From an archaeon (GTDB taxonomy: Archaea; Undinarchaeota; Undinarchaeia; Undinarchaeales; JBDRKL01): DNA of 64,000 bases. Positions 18,446-54,127 of this stretch are shown piece by piece. The DNA lies in NCBI GenBank assembly GCA_043814055.1, contig JBDRKL010000010.1, positions 85,433 to 149,432 of the forward strand, read 5' to 3'. Below the pieces are notes generated by a model. It did not search any database. It was not told the origin of the DNA and saw only the letters and a program-made list of their open reading frames with translations. A program made the position numbers and the translations under genes. The number at the start of each line of letters is the position of its first letter. The stretch's first letter is position 1.

Positions 18446-18552
18446 TGCAGGAGGAGGGATTTGGGAACCTCCGCCTGCTTGCGGAGGATAAGCTACGAGA
18501 GATAGCGAGATTTGTTGGTCAACATTTTTGCGGCGTAGCCGGAAAAAGGTTG
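18446..18552 (-). mobile_element. hairpin element plus degenerate tRNA-Leu 3' end copy
   Basis: CAACCTTTTTCCGGCTACGCCGCAAAAA shared with 31857; 18446-18463 matches 18556-18573 at 15/18. Confidence 0.65.
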
Positions 18553-18641
18553 TGGTGCGGGAGATGGGATTTGAACCCACGGAGGTACTAAACCACAGGA
18601 TCTTAAGTCCTGCCCCTTAGGCCAGGCTCGGGTACTCCCGC
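18553..18641 (-). tRNA. tRNA-Leu(UAA)
   Basis: Cloverleaf, CAGGA-CTTAAGA-TCCTG, long variable arm, CCA. Confidence 0.95.
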
Positions 18642-18701
18642 AATTTTATTGAAAATCAATAAGACTCGCTAGTTTTTAAAATGAATCCTGCCTTCACAGG
18701 A

Positions 18702-19295
18702 CTAGTGTAATAAGCCCACGGCGCTCAATGTGAACAGCACGCGAATGAACAGCATCGGAAGCGTTATCACGAGCGCAGCCTTCCAAGAGACCTCATAGTT
18801 CTCCTGCATTGACCACAGGCAAAGCACCCATACCCAATAACCGGTTATGAACGCTGCGAATGGGAAAATGTTGAAGAAGAAAGGTACCATTGAAAGCCCG
18901 ACTAGCTTCAGGCTGCGGTGCATCACGTCAATATTTGAAATGTCCTTGCCGGACACGATTGAACCGAGAAAATGAAATATAGCAGTCCACATCACCCAGG
19001 CAAATACAAACCAAACCGGGAGCACTATAAAAGAGATGAACAGTTTAAGTGTGTAGCCAAGCGCGACAAAGATGTTTGAAGTTAGCGCAATATTCCAGAT
19101 TGCCCCGCCGAAAGCTGTCATTATTGCTGCGCATATTACTACCAGGAACGGAACTATGCTGTCCTGCGGCACAAGACCCTCCCTGATTATGCGCTTTATC
19201 GTCGGCTTCGGGTTGATTATTATGCCGTGCACGTGATCAGAGAAATGCTTGCCAATCTGGAAGCTCTTCTGCTTGACATAAGTCCTTGCTTTCAT
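18702..19295 (-). CDS. Yip1-like membrane protein
   Basis: IIINPKPTIK start, about 5 TM segments, SWKAAL near end. Confidence 0.65.
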   Translation of the reverse strand: MKARTYVKQKSFQIGKHFSDHVHGIIINPKPTIKRIIREGLVPQDSIVPFLVVICAAIMTAFGGAIWNIALTSNIFVALGYTLKLFISFIVLPVWFVFAWVMWTAIFHFLGSIVSGKDISNIDVMHRSLKLVGLSMVPFFFNIFPFAAFITGYWVWVLCLWSMQENYEVSWKAALVITLPMLFIRVLFTLSAVGLLH

Positions 19296-19397
19296 AAGAC
19301 CTTATTAATGAAAAGATGAGTTTTTATACGTTACTACTGGTGAGTTGCAGAGAGTTGGGAAGGTATATTAAGTTTTGAAATGAATAGTACAAAAGTT

Positions 19398-19529
19398 GGG
19401 GTCGTGGTCTAGTTTGGTATGATACTACCTCGGGGTTGCGTGGGTCGTGAGCATAAGTTGAAATATACTTCCGAGCGACACGCGACAAATAGGTAGTGGT
19501 CGCAAGTTCAAATCTTGCCGATCCCACCA
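19398..19529 (+). tRNA. tRNA-Pro with anticodon-loop intron (GGG with C33, or CGG in shifted register)
   Basis: GGGGTCG/CGATCCC acceptor, GCAAG-TTCAAAT-CTTGC T-arm, CCA; ~55-nt intron with GTTGCGTG/CACGCGAC helix; adjacent to proS. Confidence 0.85.
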
Positions 19530-19563
19530 AATTTATTTAAATCAAGCAAACATACTCAAAACT

Positions 19564-21003
19564 ATGCCAAAAGAAGAAATAATCGGAATGACAGTGAAGA
19601 AAGACGAAAACTTCAGCGAATGGTATACTGAAGTTGTGCAGAAGGCCGAGCTTGCGGACTATGCTCCAATCGCAGGCTGTATTATATTCAGACCTTACTC
19701 CTACGAGATTTGGGAATATGTCCAGGACTACATTAACAAGGACATCAAGGCAAGAGGCCACAAAAATGCTTACTTCCCGCTCTTTATCCCAGAGTCATTC
19801 TTCAAGAAAGAGGCAGAGCACGCCGAGGGCTTCGCGCCTGAGGTAGCGTGGATTGCGCAGTCTGAGGACGAGAAGGGACAGGAGCGCTACGCGTTGCGCC
19901 CGACTTCTGAAGCGATTATGATGGACTCCTACTCAAAATGGGTGCGGTCGCACAGAGACCTTCCAATTCTAATTAACCAGTGGTGCAACGTGGTACGCTG
20001 GGAGACCGCAGTGACCAAGCCGTTCCTCCGCACCCGCGAGTTCTTGTGGCAAGAAGGGCATACTGCCCACAAGGACAAACAAGAAGCCGAACAAGAACTT
20101 AAGGACTCGCACGAGATGTACCGCAAGCTCGTTGAGGAAGAAATGGCAATTCCAGTGCTCAACGGCGTCAAGTCAAAAGGAGAAACTTTTGCAGGGGCTC
20201 AATACACGCGTGCTCTTGAAGCGCTAATGCCCGACGGCCGTGCGGTGCAGATGTGCACCTCGCACTACTTTGGAAACAATTTCGCAAAGGCGTTTGACAT
20301 CAAATTCCTGAACGAGAAAGAGCAGAGCGAGTTCGCGCACACCACCTCTTGGGGTATGAGCACGCGGGTGATTGGCGCGATAATCATGGTTCACGGTGAT
20401 GACAAAGGCTTGATACTGCCACCACGCATGGCACCGATTCAGGCAGTCATAGTGCCGATTGTATTTGATAAGGAAAAGGAGAAGATTCTTAAAAAGGCAT
20501 CGGAGCTTAAGGAGAGTCTTAAAAACATAAGGGTTCAGCTCGATGACCGCGACACGTACAAACCGGGCTGGAAGTTCCACCACTGGGAGCTCAAGGGCGT
20601 TCCAGTCCGAATTGAAATTGGACCAAAGGACCTTGAGAAGAAGCAGGTTGTACTTGTACGCAGAGACACAGGAGAGAAAATATTTGTCAAAGAAACCGAG
20701 CTCAACAAGAAACTGCCTGAGCTTTTAGAAACTATCCAGAAGGACTTGTACAAGAAGGCTGCGAAGTTTATGAAAGAAAGCATTCGCGACGCAAAGGACT
20801 TCAAGGAGTTTTCAAAGATAATAGAGAAGCAGCGCGGCTTTGTCAAGATGAACTGGTGCGGCGAGCTCAAGTGCGAGCAGGAAATCAAGGACAAGACCAC
20901 TGCTACAGTCAGAATAATTGCTGAGAAAGAAAAGGCAGCGGGCAAGTGCCCGCACTGCGGGAAAGAAGCAAAGCACGTTGCGTATTTTGCTAAGAGTTAT
21001 TAA
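19564..21003 (+). CDS. proS: proline--tRNA ligase (archaeal/eukaryal type)
   Basis: LRPTSE, FLRTREFLWQEGHT, WELKGVP.RIEIGP, C-terminal AKSY. Confidence 0.97.
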   Translation: MPKEEIIGMTVKKDENFSEWYTEVVQKAELADYAPIAGCIIFRPYSYEIWEYVQDYINKDIKARGHKNAYFPLFIPESFFKKEAEHAEGFAPEVAWIAQSEDEKGQERYALRPTSEAIMMDSYSKWVRSHRDLPILINQWCNVVRWETAVTKPFLRTREFLWQEGHTAHKDKQEAEQELKDSHEMYRKLVEEEMAIPVLNGVKSKGETFAGAQYTRALEALMPDGRAVQMCTSHYFGNNFAKAFDIKFLNEKEQSEFAHTTSWGMSTRVIGAIIMVHGDDKGLILPPRMAPIQAVIVPIVFDKEKEKILKKASELKESLKNIRVQLDDRDTYKPGWKFHHWELKGVPVRIEIGPKDLEKKQVVLVRRDTGEKIFVKETELNKKLPELLETIQKDLYKKAAKFMKESIRDAKDFKEFSKIIEKQRGFVKMNWCGELKCEQEIKDKTTATVRIIAEKEKAAGKCPHCGKEAKHVAYFAKSY

Positions 21004-21025
21004 GCAGTTTGTTTATTATTGAGTT

Positions 21026-21585
21026 ATGGTTGAGATAAAAGTATACAAACATTGCACCCCTCGCGACTTTTGGGTATATGAACGGGCAAAAAATATGAGG
21101 CAAACATTCAACACGACCCAAATATAGAACACGAGCATTCAGGAACCATACGCCTAGCCTGGTTTAAGGACTCAACACACAACAAAAAATACCCAGTTCT
21201 TTTTTCACTATTGAATTTCAAATCAACTTCTGCATATGTCTGGGGCGTTGGCATTGAAAAAATGCAGAGATGGTGCACAGTTCCAGAATTTTTCTGCTAT
21301 TACTATTACATAAACAAGGACGGCGTTTTCAAGGACTTCAAAAACCCACCTAAAGAAGAGGCAGATAAAGCAGAACAAGAAGCCAAATTATTTTTTGAAA
21401 CCCTTGCGAATTGGATAGCAAAAAGGCACAAAGAGGTTAAAGCAGTTTATTACGAGTCTGAACTAAAGTTCTGGCGCGCGAATGATCGCATACCCCTCAA
21501 AATATCTGAACCTGATGAAGGTTATACCCAAAACTGGGGATACGAATTAAGAAAAATTCACCTCCCTAAGCGCTGGAAGCATTAA
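21026..21585 (+). pseudogene. hypothetical gene interrupted by a -1 frameshift
   Basis: ATG 21026 frame stops near 21128; frame of ORF 21211-21585 is open back to 21082; A6 run at 21088-21093. Confidence 0.45.
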
Positions 21586-21624
21586 TCAGAACATATTTAA
21601 CCCTTAATTTGGTATGGCTACGCT

Positions 21625-22422
21625 ATGGTTTTGAAAATCAATTCAAAGAGTTTTATGGAATTCCGCGAAAAGGTTGCAAGAAAGGAGGACCAGCTCTTTG
21701 GCAATCCAAAATACTTCCTGATTTTCTGCATAACCACAATCACACTTATTCTCGTCCAGTACTCACTCACCCTTAATGCGCTTGTGCCAGCAGTTACGCT
21801 TGGAATGCTATGGCTCATATTTTGGGGTCGCTCAACCGCCACAGGCAAGTCATACCTTGTCATCGCAACAGCAATCGGCTACTTGCACGAGATTATAGGA
21901 GTCCATTACAGCTGGTTCAGCTACGCGACAGGCGACTTTGGGCTTGGGGTACCGCTCTGGGTTGCGCTTGGCTATGGCTGTATTTACTGGTCAATAGAAA
22001 ATTTCTGGACGCACGCCGAGGACAAACATTATTTCCCAGAGAAAAACTTCAGGCTTGTTTGGGCGCTATCTCTGCTTTCACTGCCATTGCTGGATTATTT
22101 CGTGTTTGAAATGTCAGCAAAAATACTCCCTTATCTTGTTTTCATCTTCCTGCTTTTCCTGCTGTTTAACCGGGCAAAGGAACAGCACTTGGCAATAACT
22201 GTCGCGTTCTTCTGCGGCCTGCAGGAAGTGCTCGGCACCTTGCTCGGCGCGTGGAGCCACCCAACACTCTCGCTCGTTACAATAATACCGACTTACACGT
22301 TCTTTGTCTGGGTAATACTGTTTGCAGTGCACTTGCTTCTAAAAGATATAACAATAACAAGAAGAGAACTAGCAATTGCAGTGGCAATTATTCTGCTCTG
22401 GGTCTGGACCTGGTTTTTCTAG
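21625..22422 (+). CDS. multi-pass membrane protein
   Basis: E..G....W.Y....GVPLWV..G.G repeat pattern, also seen in 49292-49636. Confidence 0.75.
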   Translation: MVLKINSKSFMEFREKVARKEDQLFGNPKYFLIFCITTITLILVQYSLTLNALVPAVTLGMLWLIFWGRSTATGKSYLVIATAIGYLHEIIGVHYSWFSYATGDFGLGVPLWVALGYGCIYWSIENFWTHAEDKHYFPEKNFRLVWALSLLSLPLLDYFVFEMSAKILPYLVFIFLLFLLFNRAKEQHLAITVAFFCGLQEVLGTLLGAWSHPTLSLVTIIPTYTFFVWVILFAVHLLLKDITITRRELAIAVAIILLWVWTWFF

Positions 22423-22425
22423 TAA

Positions 22426-22620
22426 CTAAACCCTAAACTCAGCAACTTCGTCAAGCAAATCAACCTGCGAAAGAATCATTCTCCTGCAGCAGTATCTTTC
22501 AACTTCAACTGCGTCCATGGCTTCCTTCGGTGTCTTGCCCTGCTCAAGCAAAAGCTTGAACTGCTCATACTCGCTGCCGAGTGTTTTCCCGCATGTAAAA
22601 CATCTAACTGGTATTATCAT
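22426..22620 (-). CDS. rpoN: RNA polymerase subunit N (Rpo10)
   Basis: MIIPVRCFTCGK...RYCCRRM. Confidence 0.97.
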   Translation of the reverse strand: MIIPVRCFTCGKTLGSEYEQFKLLLEQGKTPKEAMDAVEVERYCCRRMILSQVDLLDEVAEFRV

Positions 22621-22626
22621 AGTATA

Positions 22627-23034
22627 TCACCTATAGCTCTTCTGTCTCCTTGATCTTGGAGAACTGTCCCCTGGCTTGTATGGCTCTCTCTGCCTTGAGT
22701 CACCTGCAAGTATCTTGTCGTCGTACTCTATAAGCATTTTCTTGACGTCTTCTTTTCCAGTGAATTTGACTATTGCCTTTGAAATCGCTGTTCGTGACGC
22801 TGCAGCCTGACCAAGCGCCCCGCCGCCGGTTACGTTCACGCTAATATCAAGGTCTTTTGAAACATTACTTATGACTGAAAGCGGCTCTTGTATAAGGGTC
22901 CGCTCAAGCATTGTGCCCCACTTTGAAAGCTCTACTGAATTAATGCGGACACAGCCCGTGCCCTTTGTAACTGTTGCGCGCGCTTTTGCACTCTTCTTCT
23001 TGCCTATTGCAACACTTGATTTTGTTACTGCCAT
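22627..23034 (-). CDS. rps9: 30S ribosomal protein S9
   Basis: GKKKSAKARA, GGG..GQA, QKSYR. Confidence 0.96.
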   Translation of the reverse strand: MAVTKSSVAIGKKKSAKARATVTKGTGCVRINSVELSKWGTMLERTLIQEPLSVISNVSKDLDISVNVTGGGALGQAAASRTAISKAIVKFTGKEDVKKMLIEYDDKILAGDSRQREPYKPGDSSPRSRRQKSYR

Positions 23035-23534
23035 TATTCTTTAGCCCTCTCAGCTTTCCCCTCTTTCACCCTGCTCTTTTTGGCCACTGCCGGAGCAACA
23101 GAAAGGGTTTGCATTGGCTTGCCGCCAACACGGTGCGATAGCTTTTCAAGAGTTATATACTTCCGCTTCTCAACTCCAATGATTTTTGCACCCTCAACTG
23201 TCTCAAACTTGGCATTCTCAAATTCAAGAGGAACACCGAGGTAAGTTGTGATGCGCTTGAATGCGTTGGCGCCGGATGTCTTTTTGTAGGGGAGCATTCC
23301 GCGGATTGTGCGCTTTAGAATACGGTCGGCTTTCTTAGGCGCGAATGGACCCTGGTACCTTGAACCAATGTCCTGTTTCTCAAGGTAGTCTCGCTTGGTT
23401 GTGGCCTGATTGCCAGTTATTACTGCTTTTTCAGAATTAACTATGACTATTGTGTCGCCGTTTAGCGCTGACTTTGCCACGCTGCTTGCCAGCCGACCAG
23501 CCTTCAGGTTTGTTGCGTCAATTAAGCGCCTCAT
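23034..23534 (-). CDS. rpl13: 50S ribosomal protein L13
   Basis: IDA....GRLAS.VAK, RTIRGMLPYK. Confidence 0.96.
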   Translation of the reverse strand: MRRLIDATNLKAGRLASSVAKSALNGDTIVIVNSEKAVITGNQATTKRDYLEKQDIGSRYQGPFAPKKADRILKRTIRGMLPYKKTSGANAFKRITTYLGVPLEFENAKFETVEGAKIIGVEKRKYITLEKLSHRVGGKPMQTLSVAPAVAKKSRVKEGKAERAKE

Positions 23535-23884
23535 TTGATTATCCTCAGCTCTTTTGGCTTTACCTTGAGAGCAGCTGTAATTGGCATTACCTTGCCGCCT
23601 GCCTTGGTTACTTTCGCAGATGCAGAATCGGATACCTTGTATGAATATACTGTGAGAGCGTGCTCAATGTTGCCCGCACCAAGCAGCTTGCCTGGTATCA
23701 CGACGGACTCACCCTTCTTGGTTACGCGGTTTAGATTGCTCAAATTAATCTCCGCCCAGTTCTGCCTTGGCTTCTCCAAGCGCTTGGCTAGGTCGCGCCA
23801 TATCGGGGCGCTGGATTCCTCTGAAGCCTTGTATAAGGAAGCTATCAGGGAAAGAACTTCAGTATTGCTCTTTCTAAGTTTCAT
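23531..23884 (-). CDS. rpl18e: 50S ribosomal protein L18e
   Basis: APIWRDLAKRL, INLS.L.R, VVIPGKLLGAG. Confidence 0.96.
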   Translation of the reverse strand: MKLRKSNTEVLSLIASLYKASEESSAPIWRDLAKRLEKPRQNWAEINLSNLNRVTKKGESVVIPGKLLGAGNIEHALTVYSYKVSDSASAKVTKAGGKVMPITAALKVKPKELRIIK

Positions 23885-23933
23885 AATGCGAAGCTAGTAT
23901 ATGGGTTAGGGGGTTTTTAAAGGTTTTGCAGCT

Positions 23934-24584
23934 CTACCTTTTAGCCTTGTTCAAGACATCCCCCAGCTCCTTTTTGGAGCTGGACTTGTATATCCTCTTT
24001 GGCTCGTTGTACGCGTCCTTGAAGAATTCAGAGCCAACAATCATTATTGCGAGAAGCGTTGCTATGAAACCAACTGCCCACCAACCGTTTGCGTTCCCCC
24101 TCATCGGCATTGTTTCACGCGCCATAACTTCAATTGCTGGCTTTTCAGGCAGGTTCTTGACTACAACATCAACGGTCCCCTGCGTGTAAAATCCCTCGCT
24201 TGATTTCAGGTAGTATGTGCCTAGGTATGTTTTTACTTCAGCACCCTCTGGGACATTAAAGGTTATAGTAAAATAATTCTCACTCCTTGGAGCTATTGAC
24301 GCAATGAGCTCAGGTTTAATTGTGAAATATTCTTCAGGTAGGTCCTGAAGTTCAAGCTGCACGTGGGTGATGCCGCACATAACATTGCTGATGACCACAA
24401 CCGCCTCCCCTGAGCCGCCTGGGTAAATGTTTATCGCAGACGGCGCGTCAAAATCAAAAGAAGACGTGCACGGGAACGGGTATGAGATAAAGCCCGTAAC
24501 CGAGCCACTTGAGACTACCATGCTGCTAATTAGTACAATGAGGACTAAAATCCCCAAAACGTAATTTTTATTTGCAATGTTCAT
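23934..24584 (-). CDS. membrane-anchored surface protein with Ig-like domain
   Basis: N-terminal signal/TM, beta-rich domain, C-terminal TM; start uncertain. Confidence 0.7.
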   Translation of the reverse strand: MNIANKNYVLGILVLIVLISSMVVSSGSVTGFISYPFPCTSSFDFDAPSAINIYPGGSGEAVVVISNVMCGITHVQLELQDLPEEYFTIKPELIASIAPRSENYFTITFNVPEGAEVKTYLGTYYLKSSEGFYTQGTVDVVVKNLPEKPAIEVMARETMPMRGNANGWWAVGFIATLLAIMIVGSEFFKDAYNEPKRIYKSSSKKELGDVLNKAKR

Positions 24585-24670
24585 GCCATAGGTAGTAGAC
24601 GAAGTAGGTTTTAAAGGTTTTGATACAGACAAAGAGATATCTTTTTATATGGGTAGTCCAAATAGTGCAT

Positions 24671-25833: not shown

Positions 25834-25840
25834 AACATAC

Positions 25841-26607: not shown

Positions 26608-26730
26608 ATGAAATCACTTCACTACGCTTTCGCTTCGTTCAGTCACAATGAAACTTCAGAGAATATAAACAATAAAATTGCTGAAGCTTCATTGTGTTCA
26701 AAGCTGGTGAAGGAGGTGAAACTTTGAAAT
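26608..26730 (+). mobile_element. structured insertion between stranded ATGAAAT and new RBS/TTGAAAT start
   Basis: Hairpin 26644-26696 shared with tRNA-Lys intron; 26697-26730 shared with EF-2 leader. Confidence 0.65.
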
Positions 26731-27089: not shown

Positions 27090-27781
27090 CGGTGCTTCAC
27101 ATTATCAATATGCTTTTTCGCAGCTGCAACAAACTTGCTCATTTCTTCGTCGCTCTGCGACTTTAGCGCATCATATTTTGAATTCAGGCACCGGCCGGGA
27201 ACGAACTTTTGAAGCACGTATTTCTTCACACCCTTTATGCCTTTTGCAATCGCTTCAATATCCTTCTCAGTGTGCAGGCCGGGTACGACAGTGGTGCGGA
27301 GCTCGTAGTCAATGCCGGAGTCTTTCAGGATTTGAATGCTTTCCTTGATTTTTTCAAGGTCAACCTTGGCGCCGGACGCCCTGTCATACTTAGCCTGCTC
27401 AAGCTGGGCATTAATGTCCATTGCAAAGTAGTCCACTGCTTTTGCCTTAATAAGCTGTTTGATAACTTCAGGATTGCTCCCGTTCGTGTCAACTTTCACC
27501 AGCAAATCCATTGCCCTGATTTTCCTGCAGAAATCAGACAAGCCAGGCTGCAGCGTGGGCTCACCGCCTGTGATGCAGACTGCGTCAAGGAATTTCTTCT
27601 GCCTGCCAGCAAAGTTCAGGATTTTTTCTTCAGGGATTAACTGCTGTGTATCAGCCTCAAGAACAAGCGGCCTGTTGTGACAGAAAGGGCAGCGGAAGTT
27701 GCAGCCAGGAGTGAACACTACTGCTGAGATCTTGCCATCCCAGTCCAGAGTGCTTGAATCTACAAAACCTGCAATGTTCAT
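27086..27781 (-). CDS. nrdG: anaerobic ribonucleotide reductase activating radical SAM protein
   Basis: GCNFRCPFCHN, ITGGEPTLQ, DTNGS; downstream of nrdD. Confidence 0.92.
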   Translation of the reverse strand: MNIAGFVDSSTLDWDGKISAVVFTPGCNFRCPFCHNRPLVLEADTQQLIPEEKILNFAGRQKKFLDAVCITGGEPTLQPGLSDFCRKIRAMDLLVKVDTNGSNPEVIKQLIKAKAVDYFAMDINAQLEQAKYDRASGAKVDLEKIKESIQILKDSGIDYELRTTVVPGLHTEKDIEAIAKGIKGVKKYVLQKFVPGRCLNSKYDALKSQSDEEMSKFVAAAKKHIDNVKHR

Positions 27782-27790
27782 TATTAAAAT

Positions 27791-28054: not shown

Positions 28055-28059
28055 TCATA

Positions 28060-31771: not shown

Positions 31772-31858
31772 GCCGAGGTGGCACAATCTGGTAATGCGCG
31801 ACCCTGGAAAGGTCGTTTCCTCACGGATATGCAAGTTCAAATCTTGCCCTCGGCGCCA
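31772..31858 (+). tRNA. tRNA-Ser(GGA)
   Basis: CGACC-CTGGAAA-GGTCG, long variable arm, CCA. Confidence 0.95.
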
Positions 31859-32120
31859 ACCTTTTTCCGGCTACGCCGCAAAAAGCTTGACCAAAAAATC
31901 TCGCTTCGCTCGTAATTAATGTTTCTGGCGCCAACCTTTTTATTGGTTCTGTTTTTGAAAAAAGTTTGATCAAAAACTCGCTGACGCTCGTTATGAAAAT
32001 TGATTCTCCCATTTGACCAAAGGCATTCAAATTGCCTGGCAAGGTGGCTTCGGCTTTAGCCGAACGCCGCCTAATGTGCCGCCTGAAGTTGCAGGCGGTT
32101 CTGAATCTTGCCCTCGGCGC
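31857..32120 (+). mobile_element. mosaic hairpin array ending in a copy of the tRNA-Ser 3' end
   Basis: Two CAACCTTTTT...AAAAAG(C/T)TTGA(C/T)CAAAAA units; 32104-32120 identical to 31840-31856. Confidence 0.7.
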
Positions 32121-36232: not shown

Positions 36233-38422
36233 TTATTCAAGGTAATCGCTTGGCTTTGGCAGGTCCTCTTTGAGCCCTTTCCTCTGCCTGATTTCCTTCA
36301 CGACCTTCATCTGGATTTCCTGCGGGAGCTGCTCAAACCCTGCGTTCTCTGTGCTCCAGAGCACGCGGCCCTCTGTTGCTGAGCGGATATCATTTGAGAA
36401 ACCAAACAATTCAGCCACAGGCGCCTTGGCTGTAATCTCAGTGCTGTCCCCTTCCTGCTGCATGTCCAGAATCTGCCCTCTACGGGACTGCATCTCCTTG
36501 TTCACAGCACCCATGTGCTCGTCTGGAACTCGGATAAAGAGCGTCTGTTTTGGCTCAAGCAATCTCACGCCCGCGGTTAGCATAGCGCCCTTGATAGCGG
36601 AACGCACTGCTGGAATAACTTGTGCCGGGCCCCGGTGAATGGCATCTTCGTGGAGTTTTGTGTCGTGCAGCTTGACCTTTACCCCAGCGCACGATTCATC
36701 GCAGAGCGGGCCTCTCTTCATTACCACCTCAAATGCCTCAATTGCGAGCTCCATAATTTCAGTAAGGTGAACCTCACCCTTGACCATGCTGATTAGCATG
36801 TTCTGGCCGCAGATGTCAGCAACACCCTTTGCCTCGTTTTTGTCAAGTCCAAGCTCCTGGAATTCAGCCAGATACTCCTTCTTCTTGACCTTGCCCTGCG
36901 CAAGCTTGCCCTGGAATATCGCAGTCTGGAGGGGTTGCTCAAGGGGCTCAACTGTTATGTAGAACTTGTTATGCCTGTTTGGGCTCTTGCCCTCAACCTC
37001 AGGCGATGCCTTGTCAATGGTCTCCCTGTAAACCACAATTGGGTCAGAGTGAGTGATTGGAATTTTCTTGTCGTGTTCTATCCTGTACCTCCAAATCTCA
37101 AGGTGCAGTTCGCCCTGGCCGGACATCTTGTGCTCACCAGTGGCTTCGTCAAGCTCAATCTTGATTGCAGGATCCTCCTTTTCTATGTTCCTGAGAACTT
37201 CAACCAGCTTAGGAAGGTCTGCTGTATTCTTTGCCTCAATAGCCTCTGTAACAACTGGCTCTGCCTCGTGGATTGCTTCAAATGGCTCAATTGGATTATT
37301 TGGGTCGCAGACAGTTTCCCCAGATCTTGCTGATTTCAAGCCCATCACTGCGATTATGTTGCCGGCAGGAACCTTCTCAATCTTTGAGCGTTCAGGCCCC
37401 ATGTAAATTCCAACCTGCTGGGTTCGGAAATTCTGACCAATGTTGCACAAGTGTACTTCAGCACCGTCATACAGTGTTCCTGAGAATAATCTGCCTGTTG
37501 CAACATCGCCCGCTTGCGGGTCAATTATCATTTTTGTAACCATTAGGGCGAGCGGACCCTCAGAGTTGCACTCTGCCAATTTTGCCTCCATTTCCTTGTC
37601 GTCACCAGGCCAAATCTGAGGTATCCTGTAAATCTGCGCCTGCTTCGGGCTTGGGTGGTGCTTTACGACCATATCAAGAAGAATCTTGTGAAGCGGTGCT
37701 TTCTTGTAAAGGTTCTGCCATTCCTCTGATGCATAAGAATCAAGAATGTCCTTGAAGCCGAGCCCGAGCTTCTTCATGTGCGGCAAAGAAAGCGCCCACT
37801 TGTGGAACGCTGAGCCGAACATGACAGAGCCGTCATCCACACCAACCTTGAACTGTTCATAGAGCTCTGGTGTGCAGTTCTTGCGGATGAGCTCGTTAAC
37901 ACGCGCTATAATCTTGACAAACCGCTTCTGCATCTCCTCAGGCGTAAGCTTGATTTCCCTGATTAAGCGGTCAACCTTGTTAATGAAAAGAATCGGCCTG
38001 ACGCGCTCGCGCATTGCCTGCCTGAGCACGGTCTCAGTCTGGGGCATGGCGCCTTCAACAGCGCATACCACAACAACCCCGCCGTCAACAGCGCGCATCG
38101 CGCGGATAACGTCACCGCCGAAGTCAACGTGGCCTGGAGTGTCAATCATGTTTATGAGATATTCCACACCATCAACTTCGTGCAAAAGCGAAACGTTAGC
38201 TGCATTAATCGTGATACCACGTGCCTGTTCCTGCTCGTCAAAATCCATAAACAGCTGCTTTCCTGCGTGCTCCTCTGAAATCATGCCTGAGCCGGCGACC
38301 AGGCTGTCCGACAGCGTGGTCTTGCCGTGGTCAATATGCGCTATAATACCAATGTTCCTGATTTTGTCAGGCTTCCACATCAATTCCTTTACCTTAGCAA
38401 TCAAATCTTCTTTTCGTGCCAT
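36233..38422 (-). CDS. fusA: elongation factor 2
   Basis: AHIDHGKTT, RGITI, DTPGHVDF, diphthamide loop HEDAIHRGPAQ. Confidence 0.98.
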   Translation of the reverse strand: MARKEDLIAKVKELMWKPDKIRNIGIIAHIDHGKTTLSDSLVAGSGMISEEHAGKQLFMDFDEQEQARGITINAANVSLLHEVDGVEYLINMIDTPGHVDFGGDVIRAMRAVDGGVVVVCAVEGAMPQTETVLRQAMRERVRPILFINKVDRLIREIKLTPEEMQKRFVKIIARVNELIRKNCTPELYEQFKVGVDDGSVMFGSAFHKWALSLPHMKKLGLGFKDILDSYASEEWQNLYKKAPLHKILLDMVVKHHPSPKQAQIYRIPQIWPGDDKEMEAKLAECNSEGPLALMVTKMIIDPQAGDVATGRLFSGTLYDGAEVHLCNIGQNFRTQQVGIYMGPERSKIEKVPAGNIIAVMGLKSARSGETVCDPNNPIEPFEAIHEAEPVVTEAIEAKNTADLPKLVEVLRNIEKEDPAIKIELDEATGEHKMSGQGELHLEIWRYRIEHDKKIPITHSDPIVVYRETIDKASPEVEGKSPNRHNKFYITVEPLEQPLQTAIFQGKLAQGKVKKKEYLAEFQELGLDKNEAKGVADICGQNMLISMVKGEVHLTEIMELAIEAFEVVMKRGPLCDESCAGVKVKLHDTKLHEDAIHRGPAQVIPAVRSAIKGAMLTAGVRLLEPKQTLFIRVPDEHMGAVNKEMQSRRGQILDMQQEGDSTEITAKAPVAELFGFSNDIRSATEGRVLWSTENAGFEQLPQEIQMKVVKEIRQRKGLKEDLPKPSDYLE

Positions 38423-38507
38423 TTCAAAGTTTCTCCTTTTTCTCCAGCTTTGAAATGCACACAAAGCTGGAGACCTTTATGATGCTTTGTTGTGCCATTT
38501 TTTAAAA

Positions 38508-47325: not shown

Positions 47326-47326
47326 T

Positions 47327-47569: not shown

Positions 47570-47587
47570 TGCGGTTTTTACTATGAA

Positions 47588-47661: not shown

Positions 47662-47668
47662 ATGGTAG

Positions 47669-47743
47669 TGGCGCCCTGGCCGGAAGTCGAATCCGGGTCA
47701 CGGCCGTGACAGGGCCGTATGATAACCACTACACCACCAGGGC
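47669..47743 (-). tRNA. tRNA-Asp(GUC)
   Basis: CGGCC-CTGTCAC-GGCCG, CCA. Confidence 0.95.
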
Positions 47744-47872
47744 GTAGTTCGTTACGGTGTGTCATAGATAGGGGTGGGTAGGTTAGTATGTACACTAGAT
47801 GAAATACTCTATTTGGAGTTTGTGTCACCTAAAGAAAACAATTGAATCATATACCCGCATCCATGTTGAAGT

Positions 47873-47990
<118 letters not shown>

Positions 47991-48091
47991 CTCATATAGA
48001 ACTACGGATAGGTATTTAAAGGTTTCGGAAAGAATAAAGAGGGTCTTAAACATAAGATATAAATAAGCCACTAAAGTACTAAGTTAAGCAA

Positions 48092-49282
48092 ATGAAGAAA
48101 ATACTCCTGACAATGATAGGGGTAGTCCTGCTAACTGCAGCAGGAGCCAGTGCATACACAATTCAGGGTGGCAACGCGTATTGTAGCGGCTGCAGCGACT
48201 GCGAGGCCGCACTTGACAGTGATTATACAACCACCTTCCTGGCGCAAGGCATAGCCAGCTTTGAAAGCAACTGCATAGAATGGCCAAAGCATGGGAAAGT
48301 GCTCAACTGCCAGGGATATGCTATAACTGGTAATGATAATAGCAATGTTGGCATATACTTGAGCAATAAAGATGGCAATATCATAAAGAACTGTGCAATC
48401 ACGGATTTTATGAAAGGAATTTATCTTGACTCTGACTCAGATGATAATCTCGTTAAGAACAATAACCTGAGCTCGAATGGCAGAGGCATAGCACTGGACG
48501 CAGGATCAAGCAATAACAATATAGAAGGAAACATAGCAAAAAATAACTACGAGGGCATCTCGCTGGTTGCAAGCGATGGCAACCTTTTAAAAGACAATAC
48601 ATTGAACAAAAATACTCAAACAGGCATATTTCTTCAGGATAGCGACAACAATGTTATTAGAGATTCCAGTATGAAATCCAATGGCGAAGTCGGAATATAC
48701 CTAGGCGACTCTTCAAATAATTTACTCATAAACAACACTGTGACCAAGAATTATAACGGGATAGAAGCCCAGGGTTTTGGCTCCAGCAATAACATTCTAA
48801 ACAACAACTATGTCTGCTCCAGCACAAATAAGGATATTAAAAACAAAGGCAATGGGAATACAGGGGAGAATAACAGGTGCAGCAAAGACAAGAACTGGAA
48901 TGACACGAACGAAGTCGGCTGTGAGCATATCTGCATTGAAGACGTTATTGAGAAGCAGGATGATTATATCAAGAAAGATAGCAAATATTATGGCATCCCG
49001 TGGCTGAGCAAAACCAAGCCAGGGAACACAAACTCTGGACCTGATACATCAGTAAAAAAGAGCATATCACCAAGCTATGATACAGCGCCTTCGGAGACTC
49101 TAACACCAAGCTATGATACAACACCTTCCAAGACTAAGACTTTGCCAAAAAGCTATGATACGGCGCCTTCCAAGACTCCGCCGAAGAGTTACAAGAGCTT
49201 AACTAAGCAGTCCTCAATAAGCAAGACGAGTTCTAAAATTCAGAAATCATTTTTAAAACTTAGAGTTATTGTGAAAAAGTAA
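48092..49282 (+). CDS. secreted right-handed beta-helix (NosD/CASH-like) protein
   Basis: Signal peptide; GI.L..S.NN.I..N repeats; SYDT.PS repeats in tail. Confidence 0.85.
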   Translation: MKKILLTMIGVVLLTAAGASAYTIQGGNAYCSGCSDCEAALDSDYTTTFLAQGIASFESNCIEWPKHGKVLNCQGYAITGNDNSNVGIYLSNKDGNIIKNCAITDFMKGIYLDSDSDDNLVKNNNLSSNGRGIALDAGSSNNNIEGNIAKNNYEGISLVASDGNLLKDNTLNKNTQTGIFLQDSDNNVIRDSSMKSNGEVGIYLGDSSNNLLINNTVTKNYNGIEAQGFGSSNNILNNNYVCSSTNKDIKNKGNGNTGENNRCSKDKNWNDTNEVGCEHICIEDVIEKQDDYIKKDSKYYGIPWLSKTKPGNTNSGPDTSVKKSISPSYDTAPSETLTPSYDTTPSKTKTLPKSYDTAPSKTPPKSYKSLTKQSSISKTSSKIQKSFLKLRVIVKK

Positions 49283-49291
49283 AGCTAGAAT

Positions 49292-49636
49292 ATGAAAAAC
49301 AAGCAACAAGCAGAAATTGCCACATTACTAATTGGCGCAACTTCCTTGATTTTTGTTACATATTTATGGACAACACCATTTATCTTAACCGCGATTTTGA
49401 TTGCCCTCGGAGTTTTAATGCTCGGGCTTTCCAAGCGGCTTGATGACATTTTGCTGTTTATTCTAGCAGGAGTAAGCGGAGCTCTTGCAGAAATTTATGG
49501 AATATCCCACGGCGCCTGGGCTTATGCAAATCCAACCTTCTTTGGCATCCCAATCTGGCTACCGATTCTTTGGGGAGTTGCAGGGCTGTATATGAGGAAT
49601 CTGCATAGTATGATTAAAAGATGTATAGAAAAATGA
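49292..49636 (+). CDS. small membrane protein
   Basis: AEI.GI..GAW.Y..P..FGIPIWLP.LWG. Confidence 0.75.
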   Translation: MKNKQQAEIATLLIGATSLIFVTYLWTTPFILTAILIALGVLMLGLSKRLDDILLFILAGVSGALAEIYGISHGAWAYANPTFFGIPIWLPILWGVAGLYMRNLHSMIKRCIEK

Positions 49637-49710
49637 GTCCCCTCCCCAGGATTTAGGAACGTCCGCCTGCTTGCGGACGAAAAGCAGCTTCGCTTAAACA
49701 CTTAGAAATT

Positions 49711-49884
49711 TGGTCCCCTCCCCGGGATTTGAACCTGGAACCTGCCGGTTTCTGCACGATGCGTATCCTTTGCTGTGCACAGGGCAATTGTTGCCCCGGC
49801 AACAGGTTAATCAGCTACACATCGTGTACGCGCAAAGCACGTGACGTTCTACAGCCGGCCGCTCTACCGTTGAGCCAGGAGGGG
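49711..49884 (-). tRNA. tRNA-Tyr(GUA) with 99-nt intron at 37/38 (49750-49848)
   Basis: GCCGG-CTGTAG|intron|A-CCGGC, BHB helix CTGT/GCAG, CCA. Confidence 0.92.
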
Positions 49885-50039
49885 GCTCTTAGATGTTTAC
49901 CGTAGTTATAGAGGCGTCGGCTTTAGCCGAACGCCTCCGACCTTCCTCCGAGGCCAGTCGGAGCCGACTGAGCCAGGAGGGGAATAATGGTAACCCTATC
50001 TAATGCAAAACCTTCTTTAAATCTTTTGCTCTTGGGGCT

Positions 50040-50594
50040 TTATTCGTAAACCAACACGGTGTTGCCGTTATCGTCTACAATGGAAATTGGCAGCCCTTCA
50101 GTCCACATGCCTTCAGTTCTGCCCATGTAGACGTTGATGCTATTACCAAGACCCATGCCAGTGTTTATTCGCAGTTGCCCATTAAGGTTGAAGTAGTTGT
50201 TCCCGAACTTGAACATCTCAGTACCGTTGGTCTCAATAGTCCAGCCGCGCACATCCATGTTCTTCGCATTAAGGTCCATCCACTCATCCGCGTCGTCGTA
50301 GTTAACCCCTGTGATGGCAATGTAGCCGGACTCTTCAACAGCACAGCCGGATGCCAAAAGATTGACGCAGGTGCCGTCGTTGCAGTTGTCAGTTGTGCAG
50401 AAGTTGTCGTCGTCACAGTCGTCCTTTACTTCACACTCAGCTTCAGTTTCTGGCTCAGGTTCCAATTCAGATTCAACCTCAGTATCCGCAGGTGGTGCGT
50501 ACACGCCGCTGTCATCTGAACTATCTTCAACGCAGCCAGACACGAAAACCAGAGCAATCAAGGCAAATGCCAATACCCACACTCTTGTATTCAT
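50040..50594 (-). CDS. lipoprotein with Cys-rich repeat and lamin-tail-like domain
   Basis: SGC lipobox; CDDDNFCTTDNC; I..VNYD...EW..L....D..GWTI. Confidence 0.7.
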   Translation of the reverse strand: MNTRVWVLAFALIALVFVSGCVEDSSDDSGVYAPPADTEVESELEPEPETEAECEVKDDCDDDNFCTTDNCNDGTCVNLLASGCAVEESGYIAITGVNYDDADEWMDLNAKNMDVRGWTIETNGTEMFKFGNNYFNLNGQLRINTGMGLGNSINVYMGRTEGMWTEGLPISIVDDNGNTVLVYE

Positions 50595-50793
50595 AGGGCA
50601 AGATAAAATTTCAGGGTATAAATAGGTTTGTAAAAGCATTCCAATCCGAATTTTTTAAAGAACAAATAATATAAAGGTGGAACGCAATTTTCCTACGACT
50701 GGGCTGGATCTCAATAGTTCAATTAACCCGGCAAGGTGGCTTCGCGAACGCAGTGAGCGAATGCCGCCTAATTTCCCGGGGTAATTTGACGCC

Positions 50794-51023
50794 GCCGATG
50801 TAGCTCAGCGGTTAGAGCGCCAGACTCATAAGTTCGCTTGTGAGTTATGACCCTTCGGGGAATGATAAGCGCGCTAAGACATCTGGAGGTCACGTGTTCA
50901 AAACAGCGGCAAATTCCGCTGGCAAATTGGGCCGCGTTCGGCTTCGCCGAAGCGACCCTGCTCGCATCCTGCGAGAAAGCCAAAAGCGAGTTTGCTGTTG
51001 AGAAATTCACGTCATCGGCACCA
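50794..51023 (+). tRNA. tRNA-Met(CAU), elongator, with introns at 37/38 (50831-50880) and 59/60 (50903-51006)
   Basis: GCCGATG/CATCGGC, CCAGA/TCTGG, ACGTG/CACGT; removing both inserts gives a normal cloverleaf. Confidence 0.88.
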
Positions 51024-51200
51024 AACTTTTTATTTGTTATATTTGTCCAAAAAGTTTGATCAAAAAACTCGCTATCGCTCGGTTGTTTGAATTTGACCGA
51101 AGGCATTGAAATTGCTTAGCAGCGCTGCATCACAAGTTATTTTGCAGCGCAACTTTCCTCCGGAGTTTGCCGGAGTGATCAAAAAACTCGCTTCAGCACA
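51022..51200 (+). repeat. mosaic hairpin array after tRNA-Met
   Basis: CAAACTTTTT...AAAAAGTTTGATCAAAAAACTCGCT; modules shared with 32011-32041 and 52916-52954. Confidence 0.7.
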
Positions 51201-51262
51201 CAGCGCATGAGCGCCGTGTGTCTCTACATGCTGCGCATGTAGATCGCTCGTTAAGAAATAAC

Positions 51263-52738
51263 TTACCGCCTCGTATACGCAGTCCTTTTTGCCCTGTTCC
51301 CGCCCTGAGGCCTTCCGCGGTTCCCGCCTTGCGGTCTTCCCCTGCCGCCGCCCTGCTTGTAATTACTCCGCTTGTTTTCAGTGCGCTTCATTACTGCCTG
51401 CTCAACATACGGCACTTCCTCGCGCTTTATGTCCGCAGCGGTATCGCGCTTGACAAATCCAAAATTCTCATAATCCCTGCTGGAGAGTATGTTTATGGCC
51501 TTGCCTTCTTTTCCTGCCCTAGCAGTCCTGCCTATCCTGTGAATGTACTGCTTGCTCTCCTTGGGTATGTCATAATTGTAGATGTGCGACACCCCTTTGA
51601 TGTCCAGCCCCCTAGCTGCAACATCAGTACAGACGAGCACTTTTATGTTCTGGGCGTGGAACTGCTGCATTGTCTTATTCCTCTTGGACTGATTCTGCCC
51701 GCCGTGTATTGCTATGGCGCTGATGCCATTCGCTTTCAGGTTGTCTGCAATTTGGTCAACATATCTTCGGGTGTTGCAGAATACCATTACAAGCCCTGAA
51801 GAGTTTTCGTGCTTCAGGAGGTGCACCAGCAGAGAGAACTTGAGGCTGTCCCGCACGTCGTAGTAAACCTGCTTGAGCATTCGGGGATCAACCTGCGACT
51901 CTGCAGCTATATCTATTGGAGCGTTCATGTACTTCTGGGCGAGCTTGCTTATCCCTGTTGAAACCGTTGCAGAGAACAGGAGAGTCTGCCGCTTTTTTGG
52001 GCAGCTGTTGATTATCCGCTCCACATCAGGCAGGAAGCCCATGTCAAGCATCCTGTCCGCCTCGTCAAGAACTAGTATGCTGACACATCTCAGGTCTATG
52101 GTTTTCCTTTGCATGTGGTCAAGCAGCCTGCCCGGCGTGCCCACTACCACGTCAGCGCTTCGCAGTGAGTTTATCTGCCCCATTATTCCAACGCCGCCGT
52201 ATACTGCAGTGATGCGCAGGGATTTGTACTTTGAGAATCCATTTAGCGCGCCCTTGATTTGCTCAGCGAGCTCTCGTGTAGGAGTTAAAATAAGCGCTTG
52301 TATGCCCTTGCCCCGCTCAGAGTTCTGGATTATGCCAGAGCCGAAAGCGAGTGTCTTCCCAGAGCCTGTTGCAGCGCCTGCTATGATATCCTTGCCATCC
52401 ACAACTAGGGGTATGGACTTGATTTGCACCTCAGTCGGCATCACAAAACCCTGTTCTGTTATCGCTCTGAGCACTGGCTCTGTTATCCCGAGCTTGCGGA
52501 ATAGTTCAATTGAGTCTGGAGCGCGCTCTGTATTAAGTTTAGGCGCGGAGTGAGGCGAAGCCTCTGCTACACGCTCGGTTTTGCCAGGCTGTGCCGCTTC
52601 AGTTTTGCCTTCATTTGGCATTTCTTTAGTTTGTTCTTCATGGGTTGCGCCTTCTTTTTGTTTCTTGCGCACCCATTCTGTAGTTTTCACTATAGTCTTG
52701 TTAGTCTTGTTTTGTTCTAATTCGGTCATTTTATACAT
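51263..52738 (-). CDS. DEAD-box RNA helicase
   Basis: ATGSGKT, PTRELA, DEAD, SAT, ARGLD, HRIGRTARAG; RG-rich tail. Confidence 0.96.
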   Translation of the reverse strand: MYKMTELEQNKTNKTIVKTTEWVRKKQKEGATHEEQTKEMPNEGKTEAAQPGKTERVAEASPHSAPKLNTERAPDSIELFRKLGITEPVLRAITEQGFVMPTEVQIKSIPLVVDGKDIIAGAATGSGKTLAFGSGIIQNSERGKGIQALILTPTRELAEQIKGALNGFSKYKSLRITAVYGGVGIMGQINSLRSADVVVGTPGRLLDHMQRKTIDLRCVSILVLDEADRMLDMGFLPDVERIINSCPKKRQTLLFSATVSTGISKLAQKYMNAPIDIAAESQVDPRMLKQVYYDVRDSLKFSLLVHLLKHENSSGLVMVFCNTRRYVDQIADNLKANGISAIAIHGGQNQSKRNKTMQQFHAQNIKVLVCTDVAARGLDIKGVSHIYNYDIPKESKQYIHRIGRTARAGKEGKAINILSSRDYENFGFVKRDTAADIKREEVPYVEQAVMKRTENKRSNYKQGGGRGRPQGGNRGRPQGGNRAKRTAYTRR

Positions 52739-52973
52739 CTAGAAAAATAGCGTTGTATGCACTTTTTTCTATCCCCGTCTTTCAACTATGACTATTTATG
52801 TGAACGGCGTTGTATTTAATACTATGGTAGGAACACCAAAACTTATTTAATCAGAGCAACGATTTAGTATGAGTTCAGTTTGGTTGGCAAATTGCAAAGC
52901 AGGATGACTTGCTCGGCAGCGCTGCAGCATCACCAAAGTGATGCAGCGCAACTTGTCAACTGAGTTCGCAGTT

Positions 52974-53048
52974 GCCTCGGTGGCTCAGTGGTAGAGCGGC
53001 TGTCCTGTAAACAGCAGGTCGGGAGTTCAATTCTCCCCCGGGGCTCCA
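52974..53048 (+). tRNA. tRNA-Thr(UGU), C at position 33
   Basis: GCTGT-CCTGTAA-ACAGC, U73, CCA. Confidence 0.9.
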
Positions 53049-53051
53049 AAT

Positions 53052-53219
53052 CAAACTTTTTAGTAAAAAAGTTTGATCAAAAACAAAAAGAAGAAACACA
53101 TTAACCTTTAACCCACAACAAACTTTTTAGTAAAAAAGTTTGATCAAAAACAAAAAGAAGAAACACATTAACCTTTAACCCACAACAAACTTTTTAGTAA
53201 AAAAGTTTGATCAAAAACA
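53052..53219 (+). repeat. 2.5 x 67-bp tandem repeat (palindromic core plus stranded gene end)
   Basis: CAAACTTTTTAGTAAAAAAGTTTGATCAAAAACA at 53052, 53119, 53186. Confidence 0.9.
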
Positions 53220-53239
53220 CAATACACCTCTGGCACAAT

Positions 53240-53701
53240 TTACCCCCCTTTCACCCACATTAAAATAGCCCAGCCGAGTTTTGAGAAGATTAAGTAATTA
53301 AATAATATAGAGAGCATTGCAAACTTGACCAGGCGGAACCAGTTTGAGCCCATAAACATCCAGATTATGTTTGAGACAATGTTGTAGCCAATCACAATCA
53401 TCATTGAGTTGAGCAGGAAGTTCTTCGCGGTTATGTCAAAGAACGTTGCGGCGAAGAGCGTGCCTGCAAGAGTTATGCCCATAATGAACAATCCCTGGAT
53501 TTCATAAGGGAACAGGACGAACGAGATTATCAGGATTGAGATTGCGAAGAGGAAACCCCACAGCGGGCCGAATGCGTAGGTCAGAATCAGGCCGAATGAG
53601 AGCCAGATGCCGACGCCCTGCATCTCAAAGCGGCGCATCCAAAACTCAAGGAAGCCGCCAATCATCACGAGCCCGATGAGCGCGAGGAGTTGGTAAAACA
53701 T
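53240..53701 (-). CDS. multi-pass membrane protein
   Basis: About 6 hydrophobic helices, FGP.WG motif reminiscent of ECF S components. Confidence 0.7.
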   Translation of the reverse strand: MFYQLLALIGLVMIGGFLEFWMRRFEMQGVGIWLSFGLILTYAFGPLWGFLFAISILIISFVLFPYEIQGLFIMGITLAGTLFAATFFDITAKNFLLNSMMIVIGYNIVSNIIWMFMGSNWFRLVKFAMLSILFNYLIFSKLGWAILMWVKGG

Positions 53702-53781
53702 ACTTGGGAATACTTGGAAGGTGTATTTAAGTTTTGAGAAGAAGTTATATATTACTAAATAAATAGTGTTGAGTCTAACGT

Positions 53782-54004
53782 GGGCTCGTGGCTCAAGCTG
53801 GTAGAGCATCTGACTCTTAATCAGAGGGTTGAGGGTTCAAATCTCCGCCGCTGCGGACACAATGAAACGCCAGAGATGTAATAAAATTGCTGGCGATTCA
53901 TTGTGAGGATAGCAGGGGGCTTGGTGAAAACCAAGCATTCAGCCTTCGGCTGAAGCCCCCCTATAAAATGCAGCTTCGGACTGAAAATCCCTTCGGGCCC
54001 ACCA
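53782..54004 (+). tRNA. tRNA-Lys(CUU) with 146-nt T-loop intron at 59/60 (53842-53987)
   Basis: TCTGA-CTCTTAA-TCAGA; BHB TTCA-AA|T ... TGAA-AA|T; GAGGG/CCCTT; CCA. Confidence 0.88.
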
Positions 54005-54127
54005 ATCACAATATCGGGGCTTCGGCAACAGCCGAATGCCCTCGGCCTACAAACACGCAAAGCGTGTTGTACAACCCGCTGTCGCGGGTTCGTACCTCCG
54101 CGGCCAGGCGGAGCTTCGGGCCCACCA
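54005..54127 (+). mobile_element. hairpin array ending in a copy of the tRNA-Lys 3' end
   Basis: CTTCGGGCCCACCA at 54114-54127 identical to 53991-54004. Confidence 0.7.

Follow-up and report, generated by a model that had tools for sequence, protein, structure and literature searches.

A double-hairpin repeat adjoins duplicated gene ends, including stranded tRNA ends, in a small archaeal genome

In a 64,000-nt stretch of an archaeal genome (C10:85433-149432, hereafter the window), short hairpins stand next to stranded tRNA ends, i.e. partial copies of tRNA genes that lie beside the intact gene. These hairpins belong to a double-hairpin element (DHE), a small repeat that is spread through this tiny archaeal genome. 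The explanation that we favor, with moderate confidence, is that small insertions duplicate or replace gene ends and are bordered by the terminal hairpin of the element (hp2), and that the stranded tRNA ends are the scars left by these insertions. The assembly comprises 979,685 bases in 14 contigs, referred to as C with a number, and is 82% complete.

Structure and copy number of the element

Comparison of the genome with itself revealed many short repeats, both near tRNA genes and far from them. Alignment of 19 DHE copies defined a unit of ~67 nt that consists of an ATAG-like lead, a first hairpin (hp1), a linker of ~7 nt and the terminal hp2; the copies diverge upstream of the lead and right after hp2. 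hp1 has a conserved base, CTTCG...CGAAYG, of which the TTCG/CGAA part is invariant, and a bulged T; hp2 has the form CTCCGN, a 6-nt loop usually ending in CAG, and N'CGGAG. The consensus fold contains 16 predicted pairs, eight of which show compensatory changes. A sequence-only reading of the window had described the hp2 stems as covarying, which holds for the loop-closing pair but not for the CTCCG/CGGAG core, which is nearly invariant. Its suggestion that the hairpin marks the end of an element agrees well with the alignment: hp2 is the terminal stem-loop of the DHE, and the duplicated target begins 0-13 nt beyond it.

A covariance model built from the 19 copies gave 47 matches in the genome at E≤0.01, including the training copies. 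The copies occur in both orientations and also inside tRNA introns. At locus L125 (C9:25308-26816 and 27257-27619) the element lies in frame, twice in the same frame (..ASPxANASAxPPxAxGE): it is contained in the N-terminal region, which is acidic, of an FtsY-like protein and makes up the C-terminal tail of a ribosomal protein LX-like open reading frame (ORF); these two names come from the translations and not from a family search. The Rfam scan of the window with gathering thresholds returned only tRNAs and 5S rRNA and placed the hairpins in no family, and no description of the DHE was found in a literature search that did not extend to supplements, a possible place for lists of tRNA fragments.

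The abundance of the hairpin exceeds chance. A pattern search for it gave 4 matches against 0.84 expected, the genome contains 130 perfect GC hairpins with a 6-bp stem and a 6-nt loop compared with 39-51 in five shuffled sequences, and those with an NNNCAG loop number 31, compared with 0-1. The core expression TCCGN, 4-8 nt, N'CGGA has 52 matches in the genome: ~17, as read from the list, abut tRNA pieces, ~20 are clear family members with no ARAGORN-called tRNA gene within 1 kb, and the remaining ones are chance matches, in coding sequence. The link between hairpin and duplicated ends drawn in the sequence-only reading therefore has to be widened. The hairpin is as common away from tRNA ends as next to them, because it also borders the ends of protein genes, the start of an ORF and repeat modules, but this does not hold for duplicated ends in general.

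Direct repeats bracket the inserts

For the 46 full-length model matches (a 26-nt partial match on C7 was left out), the sequence downstream of the element was sought within 450 nt upstream. A flank repeat of at least 10 nt was found for 24 of the 46 matches, compared with 7 of 300 random sites, and one of at least 12 nt for 20 of the 46, compared with 2 of 300. The repeats are 8-82 nt long and bracket inserts of about 60-250 nt, which lie in or just past gene ends.

At tRNA genes, the repeated target runs from the T-loop to the 3' end, so that the proposed junction in or near the T-arm is borne out for the tRNA 3' copies; where the DHE is inverted, the target runs from +1 to the D-loop. Two targets are the ends of protein genes: the last 27 codons of an archease-like gene (C4:82121 and 82291; named by its C-terminal sequence, not by a family search) and ~41 nt at the 3' end of a 253-aa ORF on C7, where two DHEs stand in tandem. 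The others are the start of the ORF C4:96096-97298 (three copies), a 9-10-nt piece before a 2437-aa ORF on C11 (four copies), a 13-nt end on C4 (four copies), a 9-nt TATA-like, i.e. promoter-like, stretch on C9, and a TGATCAAAAA..CTCGCT module that is found behind tRNA-Ile, tRNA-Met(CAU) and RNase P RNA. At all of these targets hp2 faces the copy that is detached from the gene body.

Copies of tRNA ends

With introns allowed, ARAGORN called 40 tRNA-like genes in the genome, many of them with long canonical introns. Removal of one evident miscall and addition by eye of three multi-intron genes gave a set of 42. An own-end copy was counted if it lay on the expected side no more than 600 nt away and differed at no more than 2 of 14 nt (5' ends) or 3 of 16 nt (3' ends). 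Such copies were present at 14 of the 42 genes (5' at six, 3' at ten, both at two), whereas non-cognate ends, used as a control, gave 14 5' and 14 3' matches in 1446 pairs. Looser own-end copies adjoin two tRNA-Ala genes, tRNA-Cys and tRNA-Pro(CGG). A GC-rich hairpin with a 6-nt loop was present at most 38 nt upstream of eight of the ten 3' copies, compared with 25 of 3000 random windows; the Lys case was beyond the range that was scored, and at Met the hairpin is not perfect. Units also occur in tandem (two each at Pro-UGG, Pro-CGG and Glu-UUC, at least three at Met), which resembles repeated insertion at one site.

A stranded 3' copy stands behind the tRNA-Met gene at C12:152935-153119, and three more copies with 90-nt spacing stand at the end of C13; the ends of C12 and C13 probably join within this tandem array. 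We also considered a minihelix, in which the hairpin loop and stem pair with the stranded acceptor strand. It fits two Leu copies, Ser(CGA) and Cys, and was dropped as a general explanation because it fails for Tyr.

Direct reading of the sequence confirmed all five hairpins and the partial tRNA copies of the window at the positions first given for them (Table 1).

Table 1. Hairpins, stranded tRNA ends and their parent genes in the window
Feature	Position	Strand	Remarks
Outer tRNA-Leu copy	18446..18467	-	T-loop, T-stem and acceptor 3' end, 22 nt; 91 nt after tRNA-Leu(UAA)
Leu hp2	18468..18487	-	7-bp stem, loop AAGCAG
tRNA-Leu(UAA) trailer insert	18488..18552	-	T-run/A-run palindrome module, then TTGACC..CTCGCT box
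Intact tRNA-Leu(UAA)	18553..18641	-	Encoded CCA
Intact tRNA-Ser(GGA)	31772..31858	+	Parent gene of the outer Ser copy
Ser filler	31859..32028	+	Two T-run/A-run modules, then leader-type module
Ser DHE	32029..32098	+	Model match 32029-32097, 36 bits; hp2 32079-32098
Outer tRNA-Ser(GGA) 3' copy	32099..32119	+	16/16 identical over scored part; 245 nt after tRNA-Ser(GGA)
Tyr 3' hp2 and outer 3' copy	49638..49679	-	hp2 49660-49679; copy 49638-49659
Intact tRNA-Tyr(GUA)	49711..49884	-	99-nt canonical intron; between its 5' and 3' outer copies
Tyr 5' DHE and outer copy	49896..49982	+	Model match 49896-49963, 61 bits; hp2 49946-49963
hp2-type module	51130..51175	+	0.1 kb downstream of tRNA-Met(CAU)
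tRNA-Lys(CUU)	53782..54004	+	146-nt bulge-helix-bulge-type T-loop intron 53840-53985
Lys DHE	54001..54113	+	Two extra nested hairpins; model match 38.7 bits; hp2 54096-54113
Outer tRNA-Lys(CUU) copy	54114..54127	+	Last 14 nt including CCA

The loci differ in how much of the element they retain. At the Leu locus hp1 is missing, and the model gives a weak match (18469-18525, 27.6 bits); the trailer module of this gene is also found behind tRNA-Ser(GGA), tRNA-Ile and RNase P RNA. At the Ser locus, a short copy of the tRNA end, GGCGCCA, stands before the second T-run/A-run module. The Tyr 5' DHE, on the plus strand, abuts the outer 5' copy (49964-49982), which is read on the minus strand. The T-stem of the tRNA-Tyr gene contains an A.C mismatch with the inner 3' strand, and the T-stem strand of the outer 3' copy pairs perfectly with the 5' T-stem strand of the gene. 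The parent of the 'Lys' piece is tRNA-Lys(CUU) and not tRNA-Lys(UUU) at 47587; after removal of the intron of tRNA-Lys(CUU), ARAGORN calls a 77-nt tRNA-Lys. The hp2-type module downstream of tRNA-Met(CAU) is followed by a 17-nt repeat of module sequence found 119 nt upstream.

The outer copies could instead be true exons, either of tRNAs with non-canonical bulge-helix-bulge introns, which would extend from the T-loop (or D-loop) across the inner copy and the hairpin, or of split tRNA halves of the Nanoarchaeum type. The genome has T-loop introns made of similar hairpins, in tRNA-Lys(CUU) and tRNA-Met(CAU), as well as a gene for the splicing endonuclease, and the Ser copy is preceded by TGAA, like the end of the Lys intron. 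However, in every case an intact cognate gene is found at a distance of 57-245 nt, often with an encoded CCA and then a T5 run, and no 3-4-3 bulge-helix-bulge could be drawn by eye at the Leu, Tyr and Ser junctions. At Ser there is only 1 nt between TGAA and the T-stem, and the T-loops at Leu and Tyr have two extra bases. The repeats often extend past the tRNA into the flanks (7 nt at Glu-CUC, ~15 nt upstream at Ala on C12), and the same layout is found at protein genes. RNase P RNA is present in the genome, and leaders could therefore be removed in the usual way. Taken together, these points make an exon origin very improbable.

Distribution among related genomes

The comparison set contained 12 other genomes of the order and 16 others of the phylum, none of them of the same genus or family. 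The DHE is carried by four genomes, each 78-82% complete: the source genome (G000, family f1) and three species of genus g3 in family f3 (G010, G006 and G002). At E≤0.001 the source genome has 37 matches and the three g3 species 16, 12 and 4; two f2 genomes have 1 and 2 weak matches, and seven other genomes of the order have none. At E≤1e-4, 4 of the 17 genomes of the phylum have matches. Of the other 13, two are the f2 genomes with 1-2 weak matches and 11 have none. The element is thus confined to two families of one DPANN order. A degenerate DHE pattern found 2 loci in a viral collection, neither of which was confirmed by the covariance model, and 61 in a genome collection, nearly all of them single chance matches in GC-rich bacteria; the confirmed ones were only two archaeal records, which correspond to G006 and G010.

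Congeneric species differ in which sites are filled and which are empty. In G010, tRNA-Pro is followed by a filler of ~35 nt, a DHE, a T-loop-like GTTCGGAA and a 21-nt repeat ending 5 nt past CCA, and tRNA-Leu(UAA), the next gene, is arranged in the same way. In G006, at the syntenic locus, the tRNA-Pro and tRNA-Leu genes are 7 nt apart and lack the DHE, and G002 has a different spacer, also without it, while a second tRNA-Pro of G006 is filled and has an 18-nt repeat. Similarly, the tRNA-Tyr 5' copy with its hairpin is found within g3 in G010 only, and G006 and G002 have no insert. The tRNA-Tyr promoter abuts the gene in G006 and the outer copy in G010.

An intact and a partial direct repeat of a tRNA 3' or 5' end form a known integration signature, as described in PMC3293823 and PMC9897764, and the stranded ends might accordingly be decayed attR/attL sites of proviruses or plasmids that were driven into tRNA genes by an integrase and later mostly deleted, the hairpin being an arm site of the integrase that remained beside the core. 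A layout that would suit such an origin is seen at C6:42615-51297, where five diverged copies of the promoter and first ~16 nt of tRNA-Trp are spread over 8.4 kb upstream of this gene, with cargo genes between them; these islands, however, end in a different shared motif, without hp2. The DHE-bordered inserts are all shorter than 450 nt and none has a repeat at kb distance (the one match to a DHE flank at such a distance was of low complexity), and repeated protein-gene ends and other repeated modules have the element at their border too. Random deletion would not be expected to leave an intact 67-nt unit ~20 times. Tyrosine recombinase (PF00589; the search did not cover serine recombinases) was found in none of the four genomes with the DHE, whereas it is present in three DHE-poor genomes of the order. 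We therefore regard decayed attachment sites as quite unlikely.

The cargo of the tRNA-Trp islands includes the GTPases Obg and RsgA, CorA, an Ig-domain protein, an ArsP permease, thioredoxin, DsbD and ArsR, and no integrase.

Inner and outer copies and the proposed origin of the inserts

Between the two archease ends, 22 of the 90 positions compared are different, 13 of which are third codon positions, as are 4 of 27 residues; both frames are open to the same stop codon position. The pair of ORF ends on C7 (~41 nt, compared by eye) shows three synonymous changes and one replacement. This is the pattern expected of functional alleles that diverged apart and not of a duplicate that decayed in place. 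Because most differences between repeats in coding sequence fall on third codon positions, import of one of the copies is probable.

Support for import also comes from two tRNA genes at which the outer copy is the better fit: tRNA-Tyr of the window, with its T-stem, and tRNA-Leu of G002, where the outer copy is a perfect partner of the 5' acceptor strand and the inner copy needs a G.U pair. Over all tRNA genes, however, the direction is mixed (four inner/outer pairs are identical), so that fit alone does not show which copy was imported. The outer tRNA-Leu copy of the window, with 3 mismatches in 16 positions to its gene, is nearer to the stranded copy by tRNA-Leu(GAG) on C9, and at these two loci the outer copies resemble one another more than their own genes, indicating that whole units are also copied between paralogous loci.

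A different explanation is that the hairpins are functional border structures, such as terminators, processing sites or insulators, and that slippage or break repair at a palindrome produced the repeats on the spot, with no mobile element involved. The modules do stand behind stable-RNA genes (tRNAs and RNase P RNA), with T-runs right after CCA, the stems are kept by compensatory change, and arrays of tandem units are present. However, the copies are found in both orientations, in tRNA introns and in frame in two protein genes, and their distribution in the phylum is patchy. In addition, the third-position bias of the archease ends, with both frames open, is not what one would predict from a local duplication that then decayed neutrally. 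Functional borders with local repeats are thus an unlikely explanation.

We return to insertion as the favored explanation. The DHE would form the far border of an insert, with direct repeats of the target bracketing it, and the inner copy would complete the gene while the outer copy is left as a stranded end; because the inner copy completes the gene, the tRNA would survive and the orphan piece would be a scar. As to how the DNA comes in, we infer import by recombination: the insert may arrive with its own copy of the gene end, which would replace the resident one in a manner comparable with the attachment sites of integrative elements. In this process hp2 may mark the end of the incoming DNA, and at tRNAs the join could use the shared GTTC of the T-loop as microhomology. 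The enzyme may be one of host recombination or repair.

Several observations weigh against this scheme. Nearly half of the DHE copies (22 of 46) have no flank repeat of at least 10 nt, and the repeat length is variable, unlike a transposase footprint. Only 2 of 7 5' copies have a GC hairpin (the script scored, next to the Tyr 5' copy, a 6-bp alternative with a 4-nt loop that overlaps the hairpin first noted there); the other five are followed by an AT-rich T-run/A-run palindrome, so duplication is not a property of hp2 alone. By our own reading, the inner copy fits the gene better at Leu-UAA, Val-UAC and Glu-CUC, which would agree with decay of the outer copy and does not show import. Empty sites could not be demonstrated for the loci of the window because the collection contains no relative of the same genus. 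As a physical intermediate, a double-stranded circle of 70-190 bp is an unlikely substrate for recombination. Besides the missing tyrosine recombinase, searches of the source genome, at its 82% completeness, gave no match for a reverse transcriptase, Cas1 (PF01867), the Y1 transposase (PF01797) or the TnpB zinc-ribbon domain (PF07282).

More speculatively, and with considerable doubt, the order may use an integrase-independent, homology-anchored mode of insertion at gene ends, in which the entering DNA brings a substitute for the gene end and has a conserved hairpin to close it. About a third of the tRNA genes might have received 70-nt hairpin cassettes in this way, and the region upstream of tRNA-Trp its kb-size cargo cassettes, and loss of the inner copy might give rise to D-loop and T-loop introns.

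The usual interpretation of a partial tRNA copy is that a large virus or plasmid has integrated at the gene. In the present case such traces flank inserts that are too small to code, in genomes in which no integrase was found, and they reach protein genes. If the mechanism is host-driven or an as yet unknown recombination, it would represent a route of DNA gain for genome-reduced symbiotic archaea and a testable path to the birth of non-canonical tRNA introns. The T-loop introns are made of similar hairpins, which makes a link between insertion and intron birth worth testing. For the annotation of tRNAs in DPANN genomes our results also carry a warning: ARAGORN with default settings missed tRNA-Tyr and tRNA-Lys(CUU), and with introns allowed tRNA-Lys(CUU) and tRNA-Met(CAU) were still missed.

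Other repeat modules and tRNA introns

The T-loop intron of tRNA-Lys(CUU) has a textbook bulge-helix-bulge, with a TTCA/TGAA central helix and two 3-nt AAT bulges. tRNA-Met(CAU) (50794-51023) contains a canonical intron and a 103-nt T-loop intron, and tRNA-Arg(UCG) (C12:115217-115465) has introns in the D-loop, anticodon-loop and T-loop. The latter gene adjoins an ARAGORN call of 'tRNA-Pyl(cta)' at C12:115016 with a 95-nt intron, a probable miscall that looks like an intron-bearing tRNA with shifted intron bounds. Two more calls are probably wrong: 'tRNA-His(atg)' at C6:86651 lies in coding-like sequence, and 'tRNA-Ser(cga)' at C12:18696 has a tRNA-Ala-like acceptor.

The module of a T-run/A-run palindrome with TTGAYCAAAAA begins immediately behind the CCA of many tRNAs and behind RNase P RNA. 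Its sites include 18488-18552, 31859-31990 and 53049-53222 in the window, and it also begins directly at the 5' splice site of three canonical introns, those of tRNA-Gly(GCC), tRNA-Met and tRNA-Val(UAC) on other contigs. It stands behind five stranded 5' tRNA copies and is present three times, with a period of ~71 nt, after tRNA-Thr(UGU).

Conserved structured leaders abut +1 of many tRNA genes (e.g. 52870-52973 and 50721-50793). They consist of a ACCAAAGGCA hairpin, a AAGGTGGCTTCG..CGAATGCCGCC hairpin or a GCAGCATCAC hairpin, followed by a short GTCAACT..GCAGTT hairpin, and are probably transcribed, since a TATA-like box lies ~100-135 nt upstream. A second, unrelated repeat family is located directly upstream of ORF starts, at 38408-38505, 26636-26730 and at more than 20 other sites in the genome. 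It contains a hairpin TTTCAAAG..CTTTGAAA with a GGAGG ribosome-binding site in its loop, ends at the ATG and has a second hairpin before the first.

Comparison with known systems

The DHE is small, non-coding, present in many copies and polymorphic between related species. It is nevertheless not a miniature inverted-repeat transposable element, as its ends are unrelated (left ATAG-hp1, right hp2; 19 copies) in place of terminal inverted repeats, and the repeats of 8-82 nt are not target-site duplications of fixed length; a parent transposase was not found either. Integration of the casposon or CRISPR type was likewise rejected, on the varying repeat lengths and the lack of a Cas1 match.

Repetitive extragenic palindromic (REP) elements with RAYT and palindromes derived from IS200/IS605 are multi-copy, non-coding, imperfect palindromes without terminal inverted repeats, and their insertion does not duplicate the target. 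The DHE resembles them in its conserved short word 5' of the hairpin, bulged stem base and compensatory stem changes; its imperfect palindromes have asymmetric ends and occur in many copies, as in those elements, but no Y1 (HUH) transposase accompanies them, and unlike those elements about half of the DHE copies (24 of 46) lie between the two copies of a repeat. Rickettsia palindromic elements and mitochondrial GC clusters or double-hairpin elements are small structured repeats of compact genomes that are found also in RNA genes and in frame in protein genes. The DHE shares these traits, with its in-frame copies in the FtsY-like and ribosomal protein LX-like ORFs. Unlike the Rickettsia and mitochondrial repeats, the DHE belongs to a DPANN archaeon and is oriented, with one hairpin end set against a duplicated gene end.

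Among archaeal systems, a similar layout is that of SSV1, pNOB8-type plasmids and Thermococcales islands, in which an intact and a partial copy of a tRNA end flank the insert. PMC3293823 and PMC9897764 also describe, for tRNA-integrating elements, inherited mismatches between att copies and tandem integration at one tRNA. The DHE loci share with attachment sites the direct repeat with a gene-completing copy, but the kb-size gene-bearing insert was not found: DHE inserts contain no gene, the four genomes with the DHE yielded no integrase, and the targets include the ends of protein genes, an ORF start and repeat modules. Sugahara et al. 2012 (PMC3293823) treat non-canonical archaeal tRNA introns and a model in which mobile elements disrupt tRNA genes. 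Our case is similar in that tRNA fragments adjoin tRNA genes and are linked to inserted DNA, and differs in that the stranded pieces are not exons, the insert has no recombinase gene and the inserts are tens of times smaller. The same hairpin modules also fill the D-loop, anticodon-loop and T-loop introns of this genome.

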